Assembly (NCBI GenBank): GCA_964014485.1
Contig: CAXHAT010000174.1
Location: 1-16,564, forward strand
Direction of reading: 5' to 3'
Length of the DNA: 16,564 bases
Source: an uncultured Deferribacteres bacterium
Lineage (GTDB): Bacteria > Zhuqueibacterota > Zhuqueibacteria > Zhuqueibacterales > Geothermadaptataceae
The notes under the pieces were generated by a model. It saw only the letters and a list, made by a program, of their open reading frames with translations, did no database searches and was not told the origin of the DNA. The position numbers were made by a program, and so were the translations under genes. Shown piece after piece: positions 1-8,614 of this stretch (positions are counted from its first letter, which is position 1; each line of letters starts with the position of its first letter).

Positions 1-262
1 GGCCTTAAAAAACAATAACTTCAAACGGCTTTGCAATTAGGTTGACGTGAATGCGAATCGTCGGGACAAAGCTCGGACGAGACGGCTGCTTCTCGTTCAG
101 AAAACTGGCCGCGAATGGAATTTGAGAATTTTGATCCCTGATCATGTCAGGGACAAGCTTATTTGGAAATTGGGATTTGATATTTCTGGCTTGTCCATGC
201 TGGAAAAGCACGACAACAAATCCCGTTAATCACGTCGATCCAGTCAAAAAAAATACAAAATC

Positions 263-922
263 ATGTGCAGACTTCTCTGCGTTCGCTCGAAAGAACCGTT
301 CTCCATTGAATCACATTTGCAAAAATTTGCGGAAATCGCGAAAAACAGCAAGGAATTTCAAGGGCACGGCTGGGGCTGCGCCTGGCTTCAGAAGGGCGTG
401 TGGACGCATTATAAAAACATCAAGCCAATCTGGGAAGACGATCTCACACAATTCGGCGAGACGATGTTATTGCTCGCGCATGCCCGCAGCGCTTTTCGCG
501 ACGAGGGAATCGTGATCGAAAACAACATGCCGTTTTATGACGAAGATTACGTCTTCATTTTCAACGGCGAACTGCGCGGCGTTCGGCTGAATGTCGAGGG
601 TCGAATCGGCGCGGAAAAAATCTTCAACCTCATTCGGCGGATGAACAAGGGCGACATGCTGACTGCGCTGCAGCGGACGATGGACGTGCTCAACAAACGC
701 ACAAAATACATTCGCGCCGCGAACATCATTCTCGCAAACACGGATCGCGTGTTCGCCGCCTCACAATTCAATGAAGACCCGGCATATTTTACCATGCGTT
801 ATAAAAGGGAAGATGCTCCGGGAGTAACGCCCGACGGTCTCACGATCATTTGTTCGGAACCCTATCCTGGCGAGCAAAATTGGATGTCAATCGCAAACAA
901 ATCTGTCTTGGAGTTTCAATGA
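263..922 (+). CDS. Class II glutamine amidotransferase-like Ntn hydrolase (EgtC/YafJ/GATase_4-like)
   Basis: Starts MCRLL (Cys2 becomes the N-terminal nucleophile). Has GHGWG, LAHARSA, NNMPF and FNGEL motifs and C-terminal IICSEP, as in this family. Stop overlaps the next start (ATGA, 919-922). Confidence 0.85.
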   Translation: MCRLLCVRSKEPFSIESHLQKFAEIAKNSKEFQGHGWGCAWLQKGVWTHYKNIKPIWEDDLTQFGETMLLLAHARSAFRDEGIVIENNMPFYDEDYVFIFNGELRGVRLNVEGRIGAEKIFNLIRRMNKGDMLTALQRTMDVLNKRTKYIRAANIILANTDRVFAASQFNEDPAYFTMRYKREDAPGVTPDGLTIICSEPYPGEQNWMSIANKSVLEFQ

Positions 923-1710
923 TTATCGTCAAAATCGGCGGCGGCGCTTCGATTAACCTCGAGGGCGTGATCGCTGATCTCGCAGAAATCGAAACGCCCT
1001 TTCTCATCGTTCACGGCGCCAACGCCTTGCGCGACCACATCGCGGAAAGACTCGGATCGCCGAAAAAAGTGATTACCTCCGCTTCCGGCTACAGCAGCGT
1101 GCTCTCCGACGAAACGGCGCTGGATAACATAATGATGGCTTACTCCGGCTTGCGCAACAAGCGCATCGTCGAACTGTGTCACCGGCACGGCGTCAACGCC
1201 GTCGGGCTTTCGGGGCTCGACGGGAAGTTGGTGCGGGGCGAGCGCAACAAAGGCATTCGCGTGAAAGAAGGCGGCAAAATGCGCATCGTGCGGGATTTTT
1301 CCGGCAAGCCTAAAACGATCAACGTCCATTTGCTAAATCTCTTGCTCGACAACGGCTACGTCCCTGTGATCACCGTGCCCATCATCGACGAAAACAATTT
1401 CGCCATCAACACGGAAAATGACGATGTCATCAACGTTATTCAGCAGGAAATGCAGGCGGATATGATTCTGCAGCTCATCGAAGCGCCGGGCTTTCTCGAT
1501 GATCCCCAAAACCCGAATTCGTTGGTTGAAAAAATGACCAAACTCGATCTCGCCGCCCGCGAAGAGCAAGTTGAAGGCCGCATGAAGCGCAAAATGCTGG
1601 CGCTGCGAAAGTTGTTCGAATCCGGCGCGCAAACCGTCGTCATCAGCGACGGGCGCACGGAACATCCGGTCAAAGACGCTTTGAGCGGCAAAGGAACGCG
1701 CATCTCATGA
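919..1710 (+). CDS. lysZ: [LysW]-aminoadipate/[LysW]-glutamate kinase (LysZ, ArgB-like amino acid kinase family)
   Basis: True start is probably ATG 919 (MIIVKIGGG), not 850. Motifs LIVHG, NKRIVEL, NAVGLSGLDG, the basic insert RNKGIRVKEGGKMRIVRD-SG and GRMKRK resemble Thermus-type LysZ more than classical ArgB. ATGA overlap with the next gene. Confidence 0.85.
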   Translation: MIIVKIGGGASINLEGVIADLAEIETPFLIVHGANALRDHIAERLGSPKKVITSASGYSSVLSDETALDNIMMAYSGLRNKRIVELCHRHGVNAVGLSGLDGKLVRGERNKGIRVKEGGKMRIVRDFSGKPKTINVHLLNLLLDNGYVPVITVPIIDENNFAINTENDDVINVIQQEMQADMILQLIEAPGFLDDPQNPNSLVEKMTKLDLAAREEQVEGRMKRKMLALRKLFESGAQTVVISDGRTEHPVKDALSGKGTRIS

Positions 1711-2861
1711 ACGAAACGATTCAGCTTGAAAACGCCTTTGGCTTGAACGTCTACCCGAAACGCGATCTTGTTTTAGTGAAAGGCGAGAACGCAAAAGTCT
1801 GGGACGACGAGGGCCGCGAATATGTCGATTGCATCGCCGGGCACGGCGTGGCGAATATCGGCCATTGCCATCCGAAAGCGATCGAAGCGATTTCCGAACA
1901 AGCCCGCAAACTCATCACCTGTCCCGGAACATTTTACAACGATACCCGCGCCCGTTTGCTGGAAAAATTCGTCAGCGTAGCGCCGCAAAATTTAACGCGC
2001 GCTTTCCTGTGCAACTCAGGCGCGGAGAGCATCGAAGCGGCCATCAAATTCGCGCGCTTCGTGACCGGCAAAACGGAGATTGTTTGCGCGATGCGCGGTT
2101 TTCATGGCCGAACGATGGGGGCGTTGAGCGCCACGTTCAATCCGAAATACCGCCAAAAATTCAATCCGCTCGTCCCCGGATTTCATTTCGCACCGTTCAA
2201 CAAGTTTGACAAATGGGCTGACAAAATCACCGACAAGACCGCGGCGGTTATGGTGGAAATCGTGCAAGGCGAGGGCGGCGTACATGTCGGCTCGGCTGAT
2301 TTTTTTCATGATTTGCAAGCGCTTTGCCGCGAGAAGGGCATTTTGCTCATCGTCGATGAAATCCAAACCGGCTTTTGCCGAACGGGCAAGTTTTTCGCCT
2401 GCGAACATTTTGATGTGCAGCCGGACATGATGTGCGTCGCAAAAGGCGTCGCCGGGGGGCTGCCGATGGGCGCCGTGCTCTGCGCTGAAAATATTGATAT
2501 CGCCAAAGGCCAACACGGCAGCACTTTTGGCGGCAATCCGCTCGTCTGCGCCGCCGCGCTTGCTGCAATGGAAGTTATGCTTTCAGAAAATCTCGCTGAA
2601 CGGGCTTCTGAAAAAGGCAGGCGCATTCGACAAAGACTTTCAGCCGAAAACTTGCCCAAAATCCGCGAAATCCGGCAGATCGGCCTGATGATTGGCATTG
2701 AGTTGAAAGAAAAAGTCCAGCCGCACCTTCAGCGCCTGATGGATGACGGCGTTCTTGCTCTGCCGGCGGGGCAAACGGTCTTGCGCTTGCTGCCGCCATT
2801 GACGATTTCGAATGAGGAGGCGAATATCGTAGCCGAAAAAATCTTAACCATTCTTCGGTAA
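1707..2861 (+). CDS. lysJ: [LysW]-aminoadipate semialdehyde / acetylornithine transaminase (class III PLP aminotransferase)
   Basis: FLCNSGAES, GFHGRTMGALS, EIVQGEGG, DEIQTGF-RTG, AKGVAGG (PLP lysine), HGSTFGGNPL and LRLLPPL motifs; coupled to lysZ. Confidence 0.85.
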   Translation: MNETIQLENAFGLNVYPKRDLVLVKGENAKVWDDEGREYVDCIAGHGVANIGHCHPKAIEAISEQARKLITCPGTFYNDTRARLLEKFVSVAPQNLTRAFLCNSGAESIEAAIKFARFVTGKTEIVCAMRGFHGRTMGALSATFNPKYRQKFNPLVPGFHFAPFNKFDKWADKITDKTAAVMVEIVQGEGGVHVGSADFFHDLQALCREKGILLIVDEIQTGFCRTGKFFACEHFDVQPDMMCVAKGVAGGLPMGAVLCAENIDIAKGQHGSTFGGNPLVCAAALAAMEVMLSENLAERASEKGRRIRQRLSAENLPKIREIRQIGLMIGIELKEKVQPHLQRLMDDGVLALPAGQTVLRLLPPLTISNEEANIVAEKILTILR

Positions 2862-2930
2862 GCACTAAAATTCATTGAAAAAAAATCGCAGATACTCCGC
2901 TCACCCACCCACAAGAATCAATAGAGCTTA

Positions 2931-3071
2931 GAGCGTATTTGGAAAGTCCAAAATTGTCATGCTGTAAGCATCTTTTTTAGACTTTTCCGCAACAACTGTC
3001 GGAACGTTCATGCCTGGCGACCCAAAAAGATTCCTACGGAATGACAAGACAAGGACTTTCCAAATATGCTC
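2931..3071. mobile_element. 141-bp MITE-like element with 19-bp TIRs and TTA target duplication
   Basis: GAGCGTATTTGGAAAGTCC (2931-2949) vs GGACTTTCCAAATATGCTC (3053-3071), 18/19 inverted match. TTA at 2928-2930 and 3072-3074. Inner inverted pair 2954-2977 / 3024-3047 (20/24). Confidence 0.8.
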
Positions 3072-3116
3072 TTACAGAAAATTATCGCCAGTTTACTAGC
3101 CATAATTTTGAGGTCA

Positions 3117-3173
3117 TGGAATCCTGGATTACTGGAAACCCAATGATCAACGCTCCAGCAATCCATCACTCCA
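3117..3173. repeat. Short inverted arrays of ~8-nt periodic repeats (TGGA-N4 then N4-TCCA)
   Basis: TGGA at 3117, 3125, 3133; TCCA at 3154, 3162, 3170. Confidence 0.5.
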
Positions 3174-3231
3174 TACAAGACAAGCGAAGTCTCGTTTTGT
3201 GCGTAGACACTTGGGAACAATGTTTTTCTAA

Positions 3232-3513
3232 CGATGTTACGCGCCAGTTCTATAATACAGCAACCAGTTGTAAACGTCATTCCTAAGGAGACGCATCACC
3301 GTCAACTTAATTTCGAGACGCCCGGAATTCTTGTTCCCAATCTCTGGATTGGGAGCGCAGTTGCATTCGAAACTCCATTTTCGAGTGAATTCCTTGGCTC
3401 GAAACTGGAGTTTCTCGCCCATTTCATCCCCAAACCAGAGATTGGGAATGAGCTGTAGTGAGATGCTGTTTGCGCCTTAGCTTCAGGAAATGTGTTGTTG
3501 TGCGGAACATCAG
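3232..3513. mobile_element. MITE copy A (TIR consensus CTGATGTTACGCA), 7-bp TSD TTTCTAA
   Basis: Left end CGATGTTACGCG, right end TGCGGAACATCAG (3501-3513). TTTCTAA at 3225-3231 and 3514-3520. Confidence 0.75.
3330..3452. repeat. REP/REPIN-like composite palindrome inside MITE A
   Basis: CTTGTTCCCAATCTCTGGATTGGGA ... CCCAAACCAGAGATTGGGAATGAG form an inverted pair, each half itself a hairpin. Inner pair TCGAAACTCCATTTTCGAG / CTCGAAACTGGAGTTTC. Confidence 0.75.
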
Positions 3514-3620
3514 TTTCTAATGCTTCTTGAACGATTCGTTTGTCTTGCCATTCACCGCCGTCTCAAATATATTGGCTCACGTTTTTAAATGTCTTGCGAA
3601 CATTTGGCTCACTCATTTTA

Positions 3621-4619
3621 ATGAATACCGTTGTCAAACTTTTGCTTGGGGGAGCCGCTCTATTTTTTGTTTTAGGTGGACCCGGCGTGATCAAGAAGAA
3701 AGGCCGCGGGCGAACGACCGCGCCGGACTCAACCATTGTTGCTCCAACGCCCGCACCCACCCCTCCCGCGAATACAGGCGGAGACGCCCCTCAACCAGTT
3801 TTTCGGTCCGGCCCCTTCAACCAGATCAAATCTCAGGACTGGCTGCAAAAAAACGGCACGTTCATGCGTGAAGTTCAGGCGGCGCGCTTGACTTATTATC
3901 TCATTGCCAAGAGCGACCGGACGCACCTCGACTCAGTCAGCGCCTGCTTAAAACAAGCCGTTCTCGGCAACAACATCGACGCGCAGGATTTTCAGTACAC
4001 CTATTTTCTCGACCGCGTGCTGCTCAACGGCGGCGGCGTGATGAACTGGCAAGGGAAAAGGTATCGCGTTACTTACGACAAATTGCGTGCGGCGGGCTGG
4101 GCCTCCGGCGCGCGGGACATTCGCAATAATTACACGTGCAGCGGATTCAACTACCGCAGCAAAAACGCGGTCGCCTTTATCCGGCAAAACCTTTCGAATG
4201 AGAATCTATTTATTCCTCTGGAAAAAGCGCGTTTTCCAAACGGCGCGGCCGTTTCCGGTCAACCGATTGTCGATTGGCAAACCATTTCCGTGAATCCCAG
4301 AACTTTCCCGCTTTCCGTACCGGAGCCGCGACGCAGACAGGTGTTGACGGATCGTTACTCGGACAATGCGCTGGCTCCGGCGCCGCGCTCATTCGTCGTC
4401 ATTCAAACCCAAGACGGAAAAATGTTCCTGACTGAAGCAGCAGACACGGGCGGCGGCGTGAAAGACGGCTGGATCGATTGGCGCATAGGGAACACCAGCG
4501 GCGAACTAAAATATTTCTTCTCACTGGGCAACACAGTGAAAGCATGGTGCTACACTTTCGATGATCCAGGCGTCACCTTCGATCATGTTTTCCAACGCAG
4601 CCAGCCGGTTCAAAAATAA
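3621..4619 (+). CDS. Membrane-anchored or exported protein with C-terminal 3D (MltA-like) domain
   Basis: Likely start ATG 3621. Hydrophobic N-terminus VKLLLGGAALFFVLGG, Pro/Thr linker PTPAPTPP, and C-terminal TISVNP...FP...AADTGGGVKDGWIDW matching the 3D signature (AVDP...DTGGAIKG..ID). Confidence 0.65.
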   Translation: MNTVVKLLLGGAALFFVLGGPGVIKKKGRGRTTAPDSTIVAPTPAPTPPANTGGDAPQPVFRSGPFNQIKSQDWLQKNGTFMREVQAARLTYYLIAKSDRTHLDSVSACLKQAVLGNNIDAQDFQYTYFLDRVLLNGGGVMNWQGKRYRVTYDKLRAAGWASGARDIRNNYTCSGFNYRSKNAVAFIRQNLSNENLFIPLEKARFPNGAAVSGQPIVDWQTISVNPRTFPLSVPEPRRRQVLTDRYSDNALAPAPRSFVVIQTQDGKMFLTEAADTGGGVKDGWIDWRIGNTSGELKYFFSLGNTVKAWCYTFDDPGVTFDHVFQRSQPVQK

Positions 4620-4641
4620 AGGTCACTCACAAGGAAAAATC

Positions 4642-6036
4642 ATGTTTGACGCAAAAATCTACCAACGCCGGCGAGACAGACTGGTCGAAAAAATGAGCGG
4701 GGGCGTCGTTCTGCTGATGGGCAACAACGAAAGCCCGATGAACTACGCGGACAATTGTTATCCATTCCGACAGGACAGTTCTTTTCTTTATTTTATCGGC
4801 ATTGACAAGCCGGGGCTCGCCGCAATTATCGACTTGGACGAAAACAAGACGATTGTCTTCGGCGACGACTTCACGGTCGCGCAAATCGTTTGGATGGGGC
4901 CGCAGCCAACCATCGCGGAGATGGCCGCTGCATCGGGCGTGAGTAAAACGCAAAAGCGTGCGGCTTTGAACGATTATCTACAAAGCGCGGCGAAGCAAAA
5001 TCGTGAGGTTCATTTCCTGCCGCCGTACCGCGCCGACAATCTTATCGAAATCGCCGACGCGTTAAATCAAAAACCCAACGAAGTCAAGAACTCCGTTTCT
5101 AAAGAATTGATTCGCGCCGTCATCGATCTACGATTGATCAAGGGCGCAGAAGAGATCAAAGAAATCGAAAAAGCGCTCGCCGTTTCCAAAGAAATGCACG
5201 TCGAAGCGATGAAAATGACGCGTCCCGGCATTTACGAGCGCGACGTGGTTGCAAAAATGGAGGCCGTCGCTTACTCGCACAGATGCCGTCCGGGCTACCC
5301 GCCGATTTTTTCAATCAACGGCCAGACGCTGCACAATCACGATCATGACAATCTCATGAAAGACGGCGATATGGTCGTGAACGACACCGGCGCGGACTCG
5401 CCGATGCACTACGCCAGTGACATTACGCGCACGATTCCGGTGGGCGGCAAATTTGACGAACGCCAACGCACGTTGTACGAGCTAATCTTGGAGATCGAGA
5501 AAACGTCGATTCGCACCTCAAAGCCGGGCGTAAAATTCCGCGACGTTCACATCGCTGCAGGGCGGATGCTCCTGGAAGGCCTGAAAGACTTTGATCTCGT
5601 GCGCGGCGATATGGCCGAAGCGGCGGAAATCGGCGTACAAGGCTTGTTTTTTCAGTGCGGCCTCGGGCACATGATGGGGTTGGATACGCACGACATGGAA
5701 GATTTGGGCGAAGAACTCGTCGGCTATGATTCCGAGACCACACGCAGCGAGCAATTCGGGTTGTGCTATCTTCGTCTGGCGCGCGCGTTGGAGCCTGGAT
5801 TTTTGATCACAGTCGAGCCTGGCGTATACTTCATCCCGGAATTGATCGATCAGTGGCGGGCGGAAAATAAATTCGCTGATTTTGTGAACTACGACAAAGT
5901 CGAAGGGTTTCGCGGCTTCGGAGGCATTCGCATTGAGGACAATGTTTTGATCACCAAAACCGGTCAGCAAATTCTCGGCGAGCCGATTCCCAAGAGTGTT
6001 TCGGAAGTCGAAGCGTTGACAGGATCCGGCGCTTGA
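4642..6036 (+). CDS. pepP: Xaa-Pro aminopeptidase (aminopeptidase P, M24B)
   Basis: AAGGA before ATG 4642. N-domain FRQDSSFLY; catalytic-domain motifs TLHNH, DTGA...YASDITRT, GLGHMMGLDTHD, TVEPGVYF, GGIRIEDNVLIT. Confidence 0.9.
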   Translation: MFDAKIYQRRRDRLVEKMSGGVVLLMGNNESPMNYADNCYPFRQDSSFLYFIGIDKPGLAAIIDLDENKTIVFGDDFTVAQIVWMGPQPTIAEMAAASGVSKTQKRAALNDYLQSAAKQNREVHFLPPYRADNLIEIADALNQKPNEVKNSVSKELIRAVIDLRLIKGAEEIKEIEKALAVSKEMHVEAMKMTRPGIYERDVVAKMEAVAYSHRCRPGYPPIFSINGQTLHNHDHDNLMKDGDMVVNDTGADSPMHYASDITRTIPVGGKFDERQRTLYELILEIEKTSIRTSKPGVKFRDVHIAAGRMLLEGLKDFDLVRGDMAEAAEIGVQGLFFQCGLGHMMGLDTHDMEDLGEELVGYDSETTRSEQFGLCYLRLARALEPGFLITVEPGVYFIPELIDQWRAENKFADFVNYDKVEGFRGFGGIRIEDNVLITKTGQQILGEPIPKSVSEVEALTGSGA

Positions 6037-6627
6037 TTACGGCGAGTAGGAGAAAATCAGCCCCAAGGCATTTTGAGCTCTGTAATATCCTGATTTCCAC
6101 AACAAAGGCCGGTATTGTTGAAAGCCGAAGCCTGCGCCATGTTTATTCGTGATTTGAAATTGCACGGATACGCCCCAATCCAGGCTTAGAATCTCGTCGT
6201 GAAAATCAGTTTCCGGCGGTCCCCAACCACTTATCGTTAGAACGTCGGCGTTAATAAAACGCATCGACAGACCACCGAAAAAATTGAGCGGGATTGGCAG
6301 ATCGTGTGGGGATGCGGTCAGCCGTAAACCTGTCAGAACACTGCGATAAGAATATATTGCGCAGTCAATGCAAGCGGCTCGCTTATTTCCGTTTTCCGCT
6401 AAATAAGCTGAATAAACGCCTGCTTTGAGTGCCGGTTTTCCATCCGGCGAATTGAGAACGTTTTTCGAAATATGGATTTCGGGATAGAATTCGAACTTAG
6501 GTTCTCTGTAAATGCTCTGGAGACTATTGGCGATTCCGGTCGTCATCGAAATTTGCGTCTGAGCCAAAGCGCACTCTGATAACACAAAAAAAGTAGCCGA
6601 TACACCCATCATAAAAGCTCTCTTCAT
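6037..6627 (-). CDS. Exported hypothetical protein, possible small outer-membrane beta-barrel
   Basis: Signal peptide-like MKRAFMMGVSATFFVLSECALA-Q (start 6627 or 6636). Alternating hydrophobic strands (LSLDWGVSVQFQI, AGFGFQQY, ALGLIFSY at the C-terminus). CIDC motif. Confidence 0.5.
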   Translation of the reverse strand: MKRAFMMGVSATFFVLSECALAQTQISMTTGIANSLQSIYREPKFEFYPEIHISKNVLNSPDGKPALKAGVYSAYLAENGNKRAACIDCAIYSYRSVLTGLRLTASPHDLPIPLNFFGGLSMRFINADVLTISGWGPPETDFHDEILSLDWGVSVQFQITNKHGAGFGFQQYRPLLWKSGYYRAQNALGLIFSYSP

Positions 6628-6640
6628 CGCGCCCATCCCC

Positions 6641-7063
6641 TCATCTCAAAATTAATTCTGAACTGTCCGGCAGGACGAGATTTAAACCGTTAAAATCATC
6701 CCGCACCAATAAATCGCTCAAATCTGATTTTAGATTGTGCGTTAAATACGCTTCGCAAGCGTCTCCGTTCGCGTCGTGATTCACAAAAATGTACGCGGTA
6801 AAATTTTCGACGCGGTTGAGCCGCACTTCATACTCATGCTCCTTGCAACCGCCGCTGTTTGAAATCTCGAAAAGCAGCGTGTCTGCGCTCAAAGATGCTT
6901 CGCTCTCATTGATGACATAATCGTCGCCGAAATCAATTTCATGCTCAACGCCTTTGAAAGGGACGAACATATTTGGCTCGGTCTCCACTGTGCTTTTGCA
7001 ATTGTTCAACACTGTCAAACCGACAAAAATCAATAAATACGCCCCAAGACGATTCAGCTTCAT
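6641..7063 (-). CDS. Putative lipoprotein (NigD C-terminal-like domain)
   Basis: SD AGGAG upstream; signal peptide ending VLNNC; motifs SGGCKEHEY and HDANGDACEA...DLSDL as in NigD-like lipoproteins. Confidence 0.6.
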   Translation of the reverse strand: MKLNRLGAYLLIFVGLTVLNNCKSTVETEPNMFVPFKGVEHEIDFGDDYVINESEASLSADTLLFEISNSGGCKEHEYEVRLNRVENFTAYIFVNHDANGDACEAYLTHNLKSDLSDLLVRDDFNGLNLVLPDSSELILR

Positions 7064-7489: not shown

Positions 7490-8614
7490 CTAAATCTCTT
7501 TAATCGAGCAGAAGCGTATCAGGAAGCCATCGATTTTTTGTGTGAAAGGCGTTTTTAGAAAAGGAACGATGACGTAGTTTTTCCCGTCAGGGTAGAGCGC
7601 ACGAAACGCTTTCAATGACTTTGTTTCAAACCGCTCCGGATTGATCTTGCACTCGACGGTGTGAATTTCACGGCCCTGTTTAATAACAAAATCTATTTCT
7701 CTTCTGGATTTATCACGCCAGAAAAAAAGGTTTATTGAGCTATATTTCGTACGCAAACTATCGAGCACAAGATGTTCCCAAAGCAAACCGCGATCCGTTT
7801 CTCTGATACTATCCCACCCCTTGAGAAAGGTTATCAAACCGGTGTCAAATCCATAACATTTATTTCGACGCGTCATTTCGCGCCGTCCGCCGCCATGAAA
7901 CGGCGGCAGCAAAAACAGCGCATGAGCAACGCACATTGCTTCAATGTGAGCTTTGACTGTTGGACGACTGAGATCACTCAATTTGGCAAGATTTGAATAG
8001 TCGATCAATCCGCCGCTTTGCCTGAGCAAGAGATGTAATAATTTGATAAAACCGGTACGATTGCGAATGCTGAACAACTCCTGGACGTCTCTCGCATAAA
8101 AGCTGTCGATCCATTCCGCAAAAAACGCATCGTCTTTTTCCGTGGTAAGCAGCGGCTCGGGCAGTCCCCCGTGTAACAAGCGATGATCAAAATCAAGAAT
8201 ATCAAATACTTCCGCACACTCGTTCCACAAGATCGGCGGCAAATAAATTGTATGTTTTCGCCCTGTCAAGCTGTCGCGAAACTTGTGGGTGGCTGCAAGC
8301 GTGGACGGTCCCGTCGCTAAAATCTTCAGATGCGGGTAAACGTCGGCGGCAATTTTTAGAACAATGCTCGGGTCATCCAGGCGATGAACCTCGTCAAAAA
8401 TAACAATTGCGTCCTCACTTAGACTATCGAAACATGACTCCGGGTCGACCATCATTCGTGTGACGGACGGCAGGTCGCAATTCAAATAGACCGTATCCGT
8501 AAACATTTTCGCCAGAGTGGTCTTACCGACGCGACGAACGCCTGAAAGCCAGACGACCGAACGCTTTTCCCAAGCTTTATTGATTTGTTCGATCCAGAAT
8601 GGACGAATGACCAT
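7490..8614 (-). CDS. AAA_14 family ATPase with DUF4143 (HTH-like plus PD-(D/E)XK-like) C-terminus
   Basis: Walker A GVRRVGKTT, Walker B VIFDEVH, SLTGR, GGLP, YARDV, HTH-like YSNLAKLSDLSRPTVKAH, KCYGFDTG, GLLWE, and EIDFV...VECK. Confidence 0.9.
   Translation of the reverse strand: MVIRPFWIEQINKAWEKRSVVWLSGVRRVGKTTLAKMFTDTVYLNCDLPSVTRMMVDPESCFDSLSEDAIVIFDEVHRLDDPSIVLKIAADVYPHLKILATGPSTLAATHKFRDSLTGRKHTIYLPPILWNECAEVFDILDFDHRLLHGGLPEPLLTTEKDDAFFAEWIDSFYARDVQELFSIRNRTGFIKLLHLLLRQSGGLIDYSNLAKLSDLSRPTVKAHIEAMCVAHALFLLPPFHGGGRREMTRRNKCYGFDTGLITFLKGWDSIRETDRGLLWEHLVLDSLRTKYSSINLFFWRDKSRREIDFVIKQGREIHTVECKINPERFETKSLKAFRALYPDGKNYVIVPFLKTPFTQKIDGFLIRFCSIKEI

Follow-up and report, generated by a model that had tools for sequence, protein, structure and literature searches.

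The LysW pathway, a textbook case of amino-acid synthesis on a carrier protein and of the common ancestry of the lysine and arginine routes, ends with the release of the product from LysW, a step that to our knowledge is known for the metal enzyme LysK only. Here we describe a gene for an N-terminal nucleophile (Ntn) hydrolase that precedes lysZ and lysJ on a contig of an uncultured Deferribacteres bacterium (assembly GCA_964014485.1, contig CAXHAT010000174.1; the whole stretch analysed, 16,564 nucleotides, is called the window), and that probably encodes a cysteine Ntn amidohydrolase acting on LysW and releasing lysine or ornithine in LysK's stead. A replacement of LysK by this protein had been put forward in a preliminary description of the window, and it is now strongly supported by comparison, namely by synteny, by mutual exclusion with LysK, by the end of the carrier protein and by a modelled complex, from which we infer the substrate and the reaction.

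The Ntn hydrolase gene and its operon

The Ntn hydrolase gene (263..922, plus strand), recognised from its open reading frame (ORF), family matches and predicted fold, encodes 219 residues beginning with MCRLL, and Cys2 would be the nucleophile of the proposed LysW gamma-amide hydrolase. On the same strand it is followed by lysZ (919..1710), encoding the [LysW]-aminoadipate/glutamate kinase of 263 residues (NF010659, 250.8 bits, cut-off 223), and by lysJ (1707..2861), encoding a class-III aminotransferase of the ArgD/LysJ family of 384 residues (TIGR00707, 438.2 bits, cut-off 410.05) that scores 425.2 bits to the model LysJ_Th_th, under its cut-off of 700. As had been read from the letters, the three genes are joined by two ATGA overlaps, of the Ntn stop with the lysZ start at 919..922 (caATGAtt, plus strand) and of the lysZ stop with the lysJ start at 1707..1710 (tcATGAac, plus strand). 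Family profile searches of the window ORFs likewise bore out that no M20 peptidase, and hence no lysK, lies 3' of lysJ.

The source genome (8.4 Mb in 465 contigs, 97% complete) was searched for the remaining genes of the pathway, a check for which the preliminary description had called. Three of them, lysW, lysX and lysY, are present on contig C209, with 64.3, 351.4 and 390.2 bits against cut-offs of 53.2, 275.6 and 233.6, respectively, and no LysK was found over its cut-off. Between lysY and the end of C209 there are 131 bases, and 262 bases precede the Ntn gene on the window contig. Positions 1..55 of the window are the end of a small repeat with inverted ends that resembles a miniature inverted-repeat transposable element (MITE), and these 55 bases occur again at 100% identity on C328, C290, C82 and C351; the terminal 55 bases of C209 beyond lysY (C209 1-55) are found again in C141, C328 and C455. 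The whole repeat, with both pieces 73 bases apart and with the inverted ends GCGTCAACCTAATT ... AATTAGGTTGACG, is held by C328 (61-243), and copies or halves of it are present on at least C328, C290, C82, C351, C141 and C455. Since the two contig ends share halves of one repeat, the genes would constitute an operon, lysW-lysX-lysY-[repeat]-Ntn-lysZ-lysJ, that is split by the assembly alone, and the lysW-lysX-lysY genes of C209 very probably lie directly upstream of the Ntn gene across the repeat.

A linkage to LysW is also evident in the neighbourhoods of the homologues. Of 3172 candidates in a protein search for relatives of the Ntn protein, 3127 reached E<=0.001, and the best 120 of these are 207-230 residues long, are 57-100% identical, and are at most named 'class II glutamine amidotransferase'. 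A scan of species genomes yielded 106 stretches with a relative, the best 80 of which were kept as loci and compared by tblastn with the source genome's own Lys proteins. In 79 of the 80 loci the Ntn gene has a lys gene as its direct neighbour. Of the 55 loci whose flanks extend over at least 4 kb upstream and 2.2 kb downstream, 54 contain all of lysW, lysX, lysY, lysZ and lysJ. The order lysW-lysX-lysY-Ntn-lysZ-lysJ is found in 56 of the 80 loci, and a homocitrate-synthase-like (HCS) gene stands between lysW and lysX in 58 of the 80, whereas none of the 80 holds a LysK-like match of at least 80 bits when a true acidobacterial LysK (331.8 bits) is used as the query. The titles of these loci name Ignavibacteria/Melioribacter, Calditrichia, Binatia, 'Deltaproteobacteria', Thermodesulfobacteriota, Solibacteraceae, Rhodothermaceae, KSB1, Entotheonella and two 'Methanosarcinales' bins. 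Open frames of 503-562 residues that could have been taken for LysY-Ntn or Ntn-LysZ fusions were ruled out by a stop after lysY and by a change of frame. In one Thermodesulfobacteriota genome, lysJ is immediately followed, on the opposite strand, by the selenoneine genes senB and senA (EgtB-like; L043 12615-14922, minus strand); the Ntn protein is EgtC-like, but this arrangement at a single locus is probably due to chance.

The product released may differ among these operons. The HCS-like gene in 58 of the 80 points to the aminoadipate route to lysine and, in the case of Rosettibacter and Melioribacter, the LysW module must make lysine, since each genome has two ArgC-type genes and no LysA. 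For the source genome, a tblastn search at E<=0.01 found no second gene of the ArgB/LysZ or ArgC/LysY type, the single ArgB/LysZ-type gene being that at window 919-1710, with the lysY-side genes at C209 132-2423. No ArgJ was found in this genome, ornithine carbamoyltransferase (398.5 bits, cut-off 280.85) and LysA (460.9 bits, cut-off 297.9) are present, three DapA-like genes score slightly below cut-off, and the two closest homocitrate-synthase-like genes, on C386 and C16, score best as isopropylmalate synthases. Given one gene each of the LysZ and LysY types, no ArgJ, and the presence of LysA and the carbamoyltransferase, the LysW module may feed arginine synthesis, and the chances are about even that it makes ornithine for arginine instead of, or besides, lysine, which may then be made through diaminopimelate. 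Two lysX paralogues per operon are found at loci L042, L066 and L138, an arrangement that suggests carriers for both lysine and arginine synthesis; the two paralogues of Sulfolobus are LysX and ArgX.

Distribution of the Ntn gene and LysK

In the source genome, no protein exceeds the TIGR01902 cut-off of 163.1 bits for LysK, and the best of seven weak matches in the genome search has 70.9 bits. Three of the seven are generic M20 deacylases of the ArgE/DapE family, with 223.9, 235.5 and 301.5 bits to TIGR01910, over its cut-off, and these three are far from the LysK models, with at most 83.6 bits to TIGR01902 and at most 84 bits, against 363, to NF003367. A search for LysK that covered 50 of the 80 genomes with an Ntn locus found none over the TIGR01902 cut-off, the best match having 106.5 bits. 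In several of these 50, two isolates and complete chromosomes among them, the only M20 matches have E values of about 1e-5 and are confined to the first 60 residues of proteins of about 490 residues, and one genome has no match.

Among the 167 genomes of the organism's own phylum, LysW was found in 26, Ntn orthologues in 25 (24 of full length at E<=1e-74 and one cut by a contig end), both together in 23, and LysK over the cut-off in none. The Ntn gene is therefore present in 23 of the 26 genomes with LysW, as compared to two of the 141 genomes without it, and those two (G103 and G082) are 70% and 78% complete. Three genomes (G194, G114 and G188) have LysW and no Ntn gene; in the first two, the end of a contig falls at lysW or at its cluster. 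The LysW-like gene of G188 (contig C78, L139 7998-8162) is an orphan that ends in ...EDWDDI, the flanking 8 kb on each side being free of lys genes. Seven of the 201 genomes (0.7-1.9 Mb) in the phylum of G039 have LysW; all seven carry the Ntn gene at a distance of a few kb from lysW, and none has LysK, although a phylum with just seven LysW genomes carries little information on LysK-type systems. For the genomes G309 and G409, no M20 candidate at all was returned.

The most stringent comparison comes from the Acidobacteriota, where both genes occur within one phylum. In a sample of 251 genomes, 15 have the Ntn gene (E<=1e-15; 14 of 250 without the unpublished genome G568), 15 have LysK over the cut-off, and none has both, with one further genome holding a 143-bit LysK fragment beside lysW. 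LysW was detected at E<=1e-6 in 13 of the 15 Ntn genomes and 14 of the 15 LysK genomes, and the Ntn and LysK genes each lie within a few kb of lysW. The order of the cluster is lysW-X-Y-Z-J-K in the LysK type versus lysW-HCS-X-Y-Ntn-Z-J in the Ntn type, and in two genomes (G560 and G479) a divergent Ntn copy stands after lysJ, in the slot of LysK. The mutual exclusion that the preliminary description had named as support for its idea is thus seen in every set of genomes compared. A LysZ tree of 98 rows unites those of the LysK type in one branch, with a support of 99 in the Shimodaira-Hasegawa-like approximate likelihood ratio test (SH-aLRT), and the Ntn/LysK label changes once on this tree.

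The divergent copies in the slot of LysK represent a second LysW-linked Ntn subfamily, read at L132 (4129-4881, minus strand) and L142 (4001-4663, plus strand), where the proteins are 32-33% identical and show MCRFL..., HARSA, FNG and IGSQK. The models TIGR03442 and PF13230 were tried as a test for absence of the family in organisms with LysK and were rejected as unspecific, with GlmS, PurF and others matching in many genomes; TIGR03442 is silent in Thermus and Haloferax, which is of limited use as a control.

Instead of releasing the product, the Ntn protein could act in proofreading and remove adducts that are misloaded or stalled, such as LysW-gamma-Glu where the system makes lysine only; the same chemistry would serve, and membership in the operon fits. 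The slot-for-slot swap with LysK in the order of the operon argues for the release step, however, and proofreading would leave that step unfilled in the genomes without an ArgE/DapE-type enzyme, making it a most improbable role.

Active site, carrier end and predicted complex

The Ntn protein passes the Pfam family GATase_4 (PF13230) with 26.1 bits over residues 1-168, the gathering cut-off being 23, whereas in a six-frame genome search with the same profile it scored lower and was not listed. Its match to the EgtC equivalog model TIGR03442 is weak (59.6 bits, cut-off 218.65), and a profile search of the protein gave no match to an M20 family. A model computed with AlphaFold from 48 sequences has a predicted local distance difference test (pLDDT) of 91.3 and a predicted template modelling (pTM) score of 0.90. 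The top fold matches found by Foldseek in the PDB are the EgtC entries 4zfl and 4zfj (E about 6e-13, template modelling score 0.75-0.79, 21-22% identity), followed by 3mdn, 1te5 and the glutaminase domains of GlmS (1xff, 1jxa) and PurF (1ao0). The Foldseek probability is 1.00 for EgtC, 3mdn, 1te5, GlmS and PurF, indicating that the protein has the four-layer Ntn fold of the GlmS and PurF glutaminase domains. By sequence, the closest PDB entry is EgtC (E 0.0034), and by family profile it is 3mdn (E 3.7e-4).

The catalytic residues that had been picked out by eye, Cys2, the Asn-Gly of FNGEL and the Arg of HARSA, are present and conserved. Met1 and Cys2 are kept in at least 90% of 48 aligned homologues, as is G102, and H73-A74-R75-S76-A77, M89-P90-F91, N101, G113, G116, E118 and K119 are invariant. 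In alignments to EgtC and 3mdn, HARSA falls on their Arg, FNGEL on HNG, and MPF on APF and HPF; the presence of MPF in place of HPF had also been described before. R75 and N101-G102 align as well with the Arg and the Asn-Gly of the source genome's own PurF; we take these residues of EgtC and the Ntn family to be the alpha-carboxylate Arg and the oxyanion Asn-Gly. The further claim, that the Asp of the TDSE/TDTE motif is replaced in the sequence IGAE, fared less well. The source genome's GlmS carries TDTE and its PurF carries SDSE at this motif, and an hhalign alignment to that PurF puts E118 on the Glu of the motif and leaves G116 at the Asp, with a probability of only 0.09%. The invariance of G116 and E118 stands, whereas a position of G116 at the Asp of the S/T-D-S/T-E motif is consistent with the alignment but unproven. 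An hhalign comparison of the Ntn family with the GlmS domain of the source genome gave a meaningless match of 25 columns and was discarded.

The C-terminus of the carrier provides a line of support that the preliminary description had not foreseen. Of 61 LysW proteins read from Ntn loci, one of them masked, 14 of 60 end in ...EEDWGQ as opposed to ...EEDWGE. Within the Acidobacteriota, a Gln-ended LysW occurs in eight of 10 Ntn-type genomes as compared to none of 15 of the LysK type (14 with LysK over the cut-off and G584, with a LysK fragment). On the LysZ tree, the carrier state changes between Glu and Gln at least 15 times, and all of these changes are among Ntn-type rows. The ATP-grasp ligase LysX acts by activating a carboxylate, and a terminal Gln of LysW is therefore useless to it before deamidation. 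A class-II glutaminase-type enzyme bound at the tail of LysW would carry out just this deamidation. A LysW-like zinc-ribbon protein of 82 residues, with a long acidic extension that ends in ...DEEDEY and not in EDWGE or EDWGQ, is encoded at L133 2-247 (contig C56 of G479, a genome with a divergent Ntn copy).

The Gln-ended carriers of Ntn-type operons, together with the three generic ArgE/DapE deacylases of the source genome, would also suit an enzyme of carrier maturation only, which deamidates Gln-ended LysW and leaves the release of the product to some other unrecognised or promiscuous hydrolase. On this account it would be hard to see why the Ntn gene is kept where the carrier ends in Glu, as it does at 46 of the 60 loci and in the source genome itself. 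Moreover, several Ntn genomes have no ArgE/DapE-type M20 protein beyond the partial matches at E of about 1e-5, with none at all in G309 and G409, and deamidation and release are one reaction that differs in the leaving group. A role limited to maturation is thus quite unlikely.

A predicted complex of the Ntn protein with LysW, proposed in the preliminary description as a check, passes its controls. The interface score ipSAE is 0.67 (0.68, 0.67 and 0.67 in the individual runs), versus 0.00 for the best of three controls. Of 157 solved complexes, 116 reach the mark for this score, as do two of 215 mismatched pairs, which is a rough yardstick since our own alignments were fed to the program. 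Agreement among the runs is 100% in their contacts, and the partner has a pLDDT of at least 84. The interface comprises residues 2, 75-78, 89, 100-110, 115-117, 119-120, 126, 142 and 145-148 of the Ntn protein and residues 8, 26, 31-33 and 49-56 of LysW, which was modelled without Met1, such that 49-56 correspond to the tail QTEEDWGE and 56 to the terminal Glu. The surest pairs are those of LysW W54 and G55 with Ntn residues 102-107 and 115-120. In the model, the C-terminal tail of LysW lies on Cys2, R75-F78, F100-N110 and I115-A117, which supports binding of LysW by the Ntn protein. Solved complexes of LysW with other Lys enzymes exist, but we know of none with an Ntn hydrolase.

The model is also relevant to a possible function as a glutaminase for free glutamine, or as a general gamma-glutamyl amidase, that feeds glutamate to LysJ or LysX and does not act on LysW. 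The class-II glutaminase fold and residues are those expected of such an enzyme, and the amino donor of LysJ is glutamate. This function would, however, leave both the exclusion of LysK and the Gln-ended carriers without explanation, the alpha-amino Asp position of PurF and GlmS appears to be Gly116 (in a weak alignment), and the modelled complex seats the tail of LysW in the catalytic groove. A glutaminase that bypasses LysW is accordingly very unlikely.

If the Ntn protein is the amidohydrolase of LysW, removal of Met1 would free Cys2 as the N-terminal nucleophile, which would then attack the gamma-carbonyl of the C-terminal residue of LysW. The carrier-bound amine, lysine or ornithine, would leave with formation of a LysW gamma-thioester, and water would resolve the thioester to give LysW with a free C-terminal Glu, ready for the next round. 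The net reaction would be that of the M20 metallopeptidase LysK, carried out by the chemistry of glutaminases and EgtC. For a Gln-ended LysW, the same reaction would proceed with ammonia as the leaving group, and would produce the Glu form that LysX requires. There is a small chance that the thioester is resolved not by water but by an incoming aminoadipate or glutamate through its alpha-amino group, an ATP-free swap of product for substrate of the kind known as gamma-glutamyl transfer, in which case a Gln-ended LysW would be a carrier made pre-activated, with its first loading independent of LysX. That the operons retain lysX favours plain hydrolysis over transfer as the main route.

Several observations weigh against the assignment of the release step to the Ntn protein. 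First, the single change of label on the LysZ tree means that the exclusion compares two old operon lineages and amounts to about one evolutionary event, which would be an ancient split of operon lineages without many independent swaps. Second, there are exceptions to co-occurrence. Genome G114 (99% complete) encodes a Gln-ended LysW in a lysW-X-Y-X-Z cluster that runs off the contig, has no Ntn match at E<=1e-10, and remains an exception without explanation; G459 and G520 carry the Ntn gene and have no LysW match at E<=1e-6. Locus L084, the sole one of the 80 without lys neighbours, has its Ntn gene 458 bases from a contig end and unrelated genes downstream. Third, the three ArgE/DapE-family deacylases of the source genome could in principle release the product. 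Finally, the equivalence of Asp and Gly in the active site leans on the hhalign match of 0.09% probability, and the seat of the terminal Glu on Cys2 and Arg75 is read from the interface lists of the model, without a named pair.

Behind lysJ there is a gap of 680 bases (2862-3540) with short ORFs only, and the next ORFs encode a 359-residue protein without a family and an M24 Xaa-Pro aminopeptidase (4561-6036). On the minus strand lie two ORFs without a family (6037-6636 and 6641-7063) and an AAA_14/DUF4143 ATPase (7490-8614). A scan of window positions 1-3600 for promoters and terminators defined no operon ends.

Comparison with known systems

The operon type without LysK is widespread, with examples from Ignavibacteria, Calditrichia, Acidobacteriota, Binatia, small-genome archaea and others, and its lack of LysK leads automated reconstructions to score lysine or arginine synthesis as incomplete in such organisms. 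If the Ntn protein does act on LysW, the release step could be assigned to it, closing this gap in the pathway; a protein-linked gamma-glutamyl amide would join the substrates of class-II amidotransferase-type hydrolases, and carriers that are encoded with a terminal Gln unusable by LysX would be explained. The Caldithrix abyssi genome paper describes a LysWXZYJ-Hcs locus of eight genes and states that the lysine pathway may involve non-orthologous displacement, and a 2025 FEBS J paper on the LysW enzymes of Thermus treats LysK as the hydrolase. No link of LysW to an Ntn or amidotransferase-type hydrolase was found in the full-text literature, a body of text that mostly excludes subscription journals, and the matches to LysW together with Ntn or glutaminase were unrelated.

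Among characterised enzymes, the best fold match is EgtC, the gamma-glutamyl-hercynylcysteine sulfoxide hydrolase of ergothioneine synthesis (4ZFJ, 4ZFK and 4ZFL). Both are stand-alone Ntn hydrolases of the class-II amidotransferase type, of about 220-235 residues and with an N-terminal Cys, and EgtC cuts a gamma-glutamyl amide and frees an amine, as is proposed here. The donor proposed for the Ntn protein, however, would be the C-terminal residue of a protein, whereas that of EgtC is a free gamma-glutamyl compound. The neighbours of the Ntn gene are lys genes (79 of 80 loci), with no egtB or egtD in the window or the operon, and the position of the alpha-amino Asp appears as Gly in the Ntn protein, as judged from a weak alignment.

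With LysK (TIGR01902 and NF003367, a relative of ArgE and DapE), the Ntn protein would share the reaction, and it shares the operons and, in two genomes, the slot after lysJ, while in the genomes compared the occurrence of the two is strictly complementary. The Ntn protein is nevertheless no member of the LysK family, whose function it may have; the folds are unrelated, LysK having a two-metal site where the Ntn protein has a cysteine nucleophile. Among the operons read, Gln-ended carriers are found only in those of the Ntn type, and LysZ of Ntn-type operons shares only 36-38% identity with its counterpart in LysK-type operons from the same phylum. As for the LysW pathway of Thermus thermophilus and Sulfolobus (LysW, LysX, LysZ, LysY, LysJ and LysK), orthologues of LysW, LysX, LysY, LysZ and LysJ are all present in the source genome, whereas the Ntn operons differ in that LysK is absent, the Ntn gene stands between lysY and lysZ, and the carrier may end in Gln.

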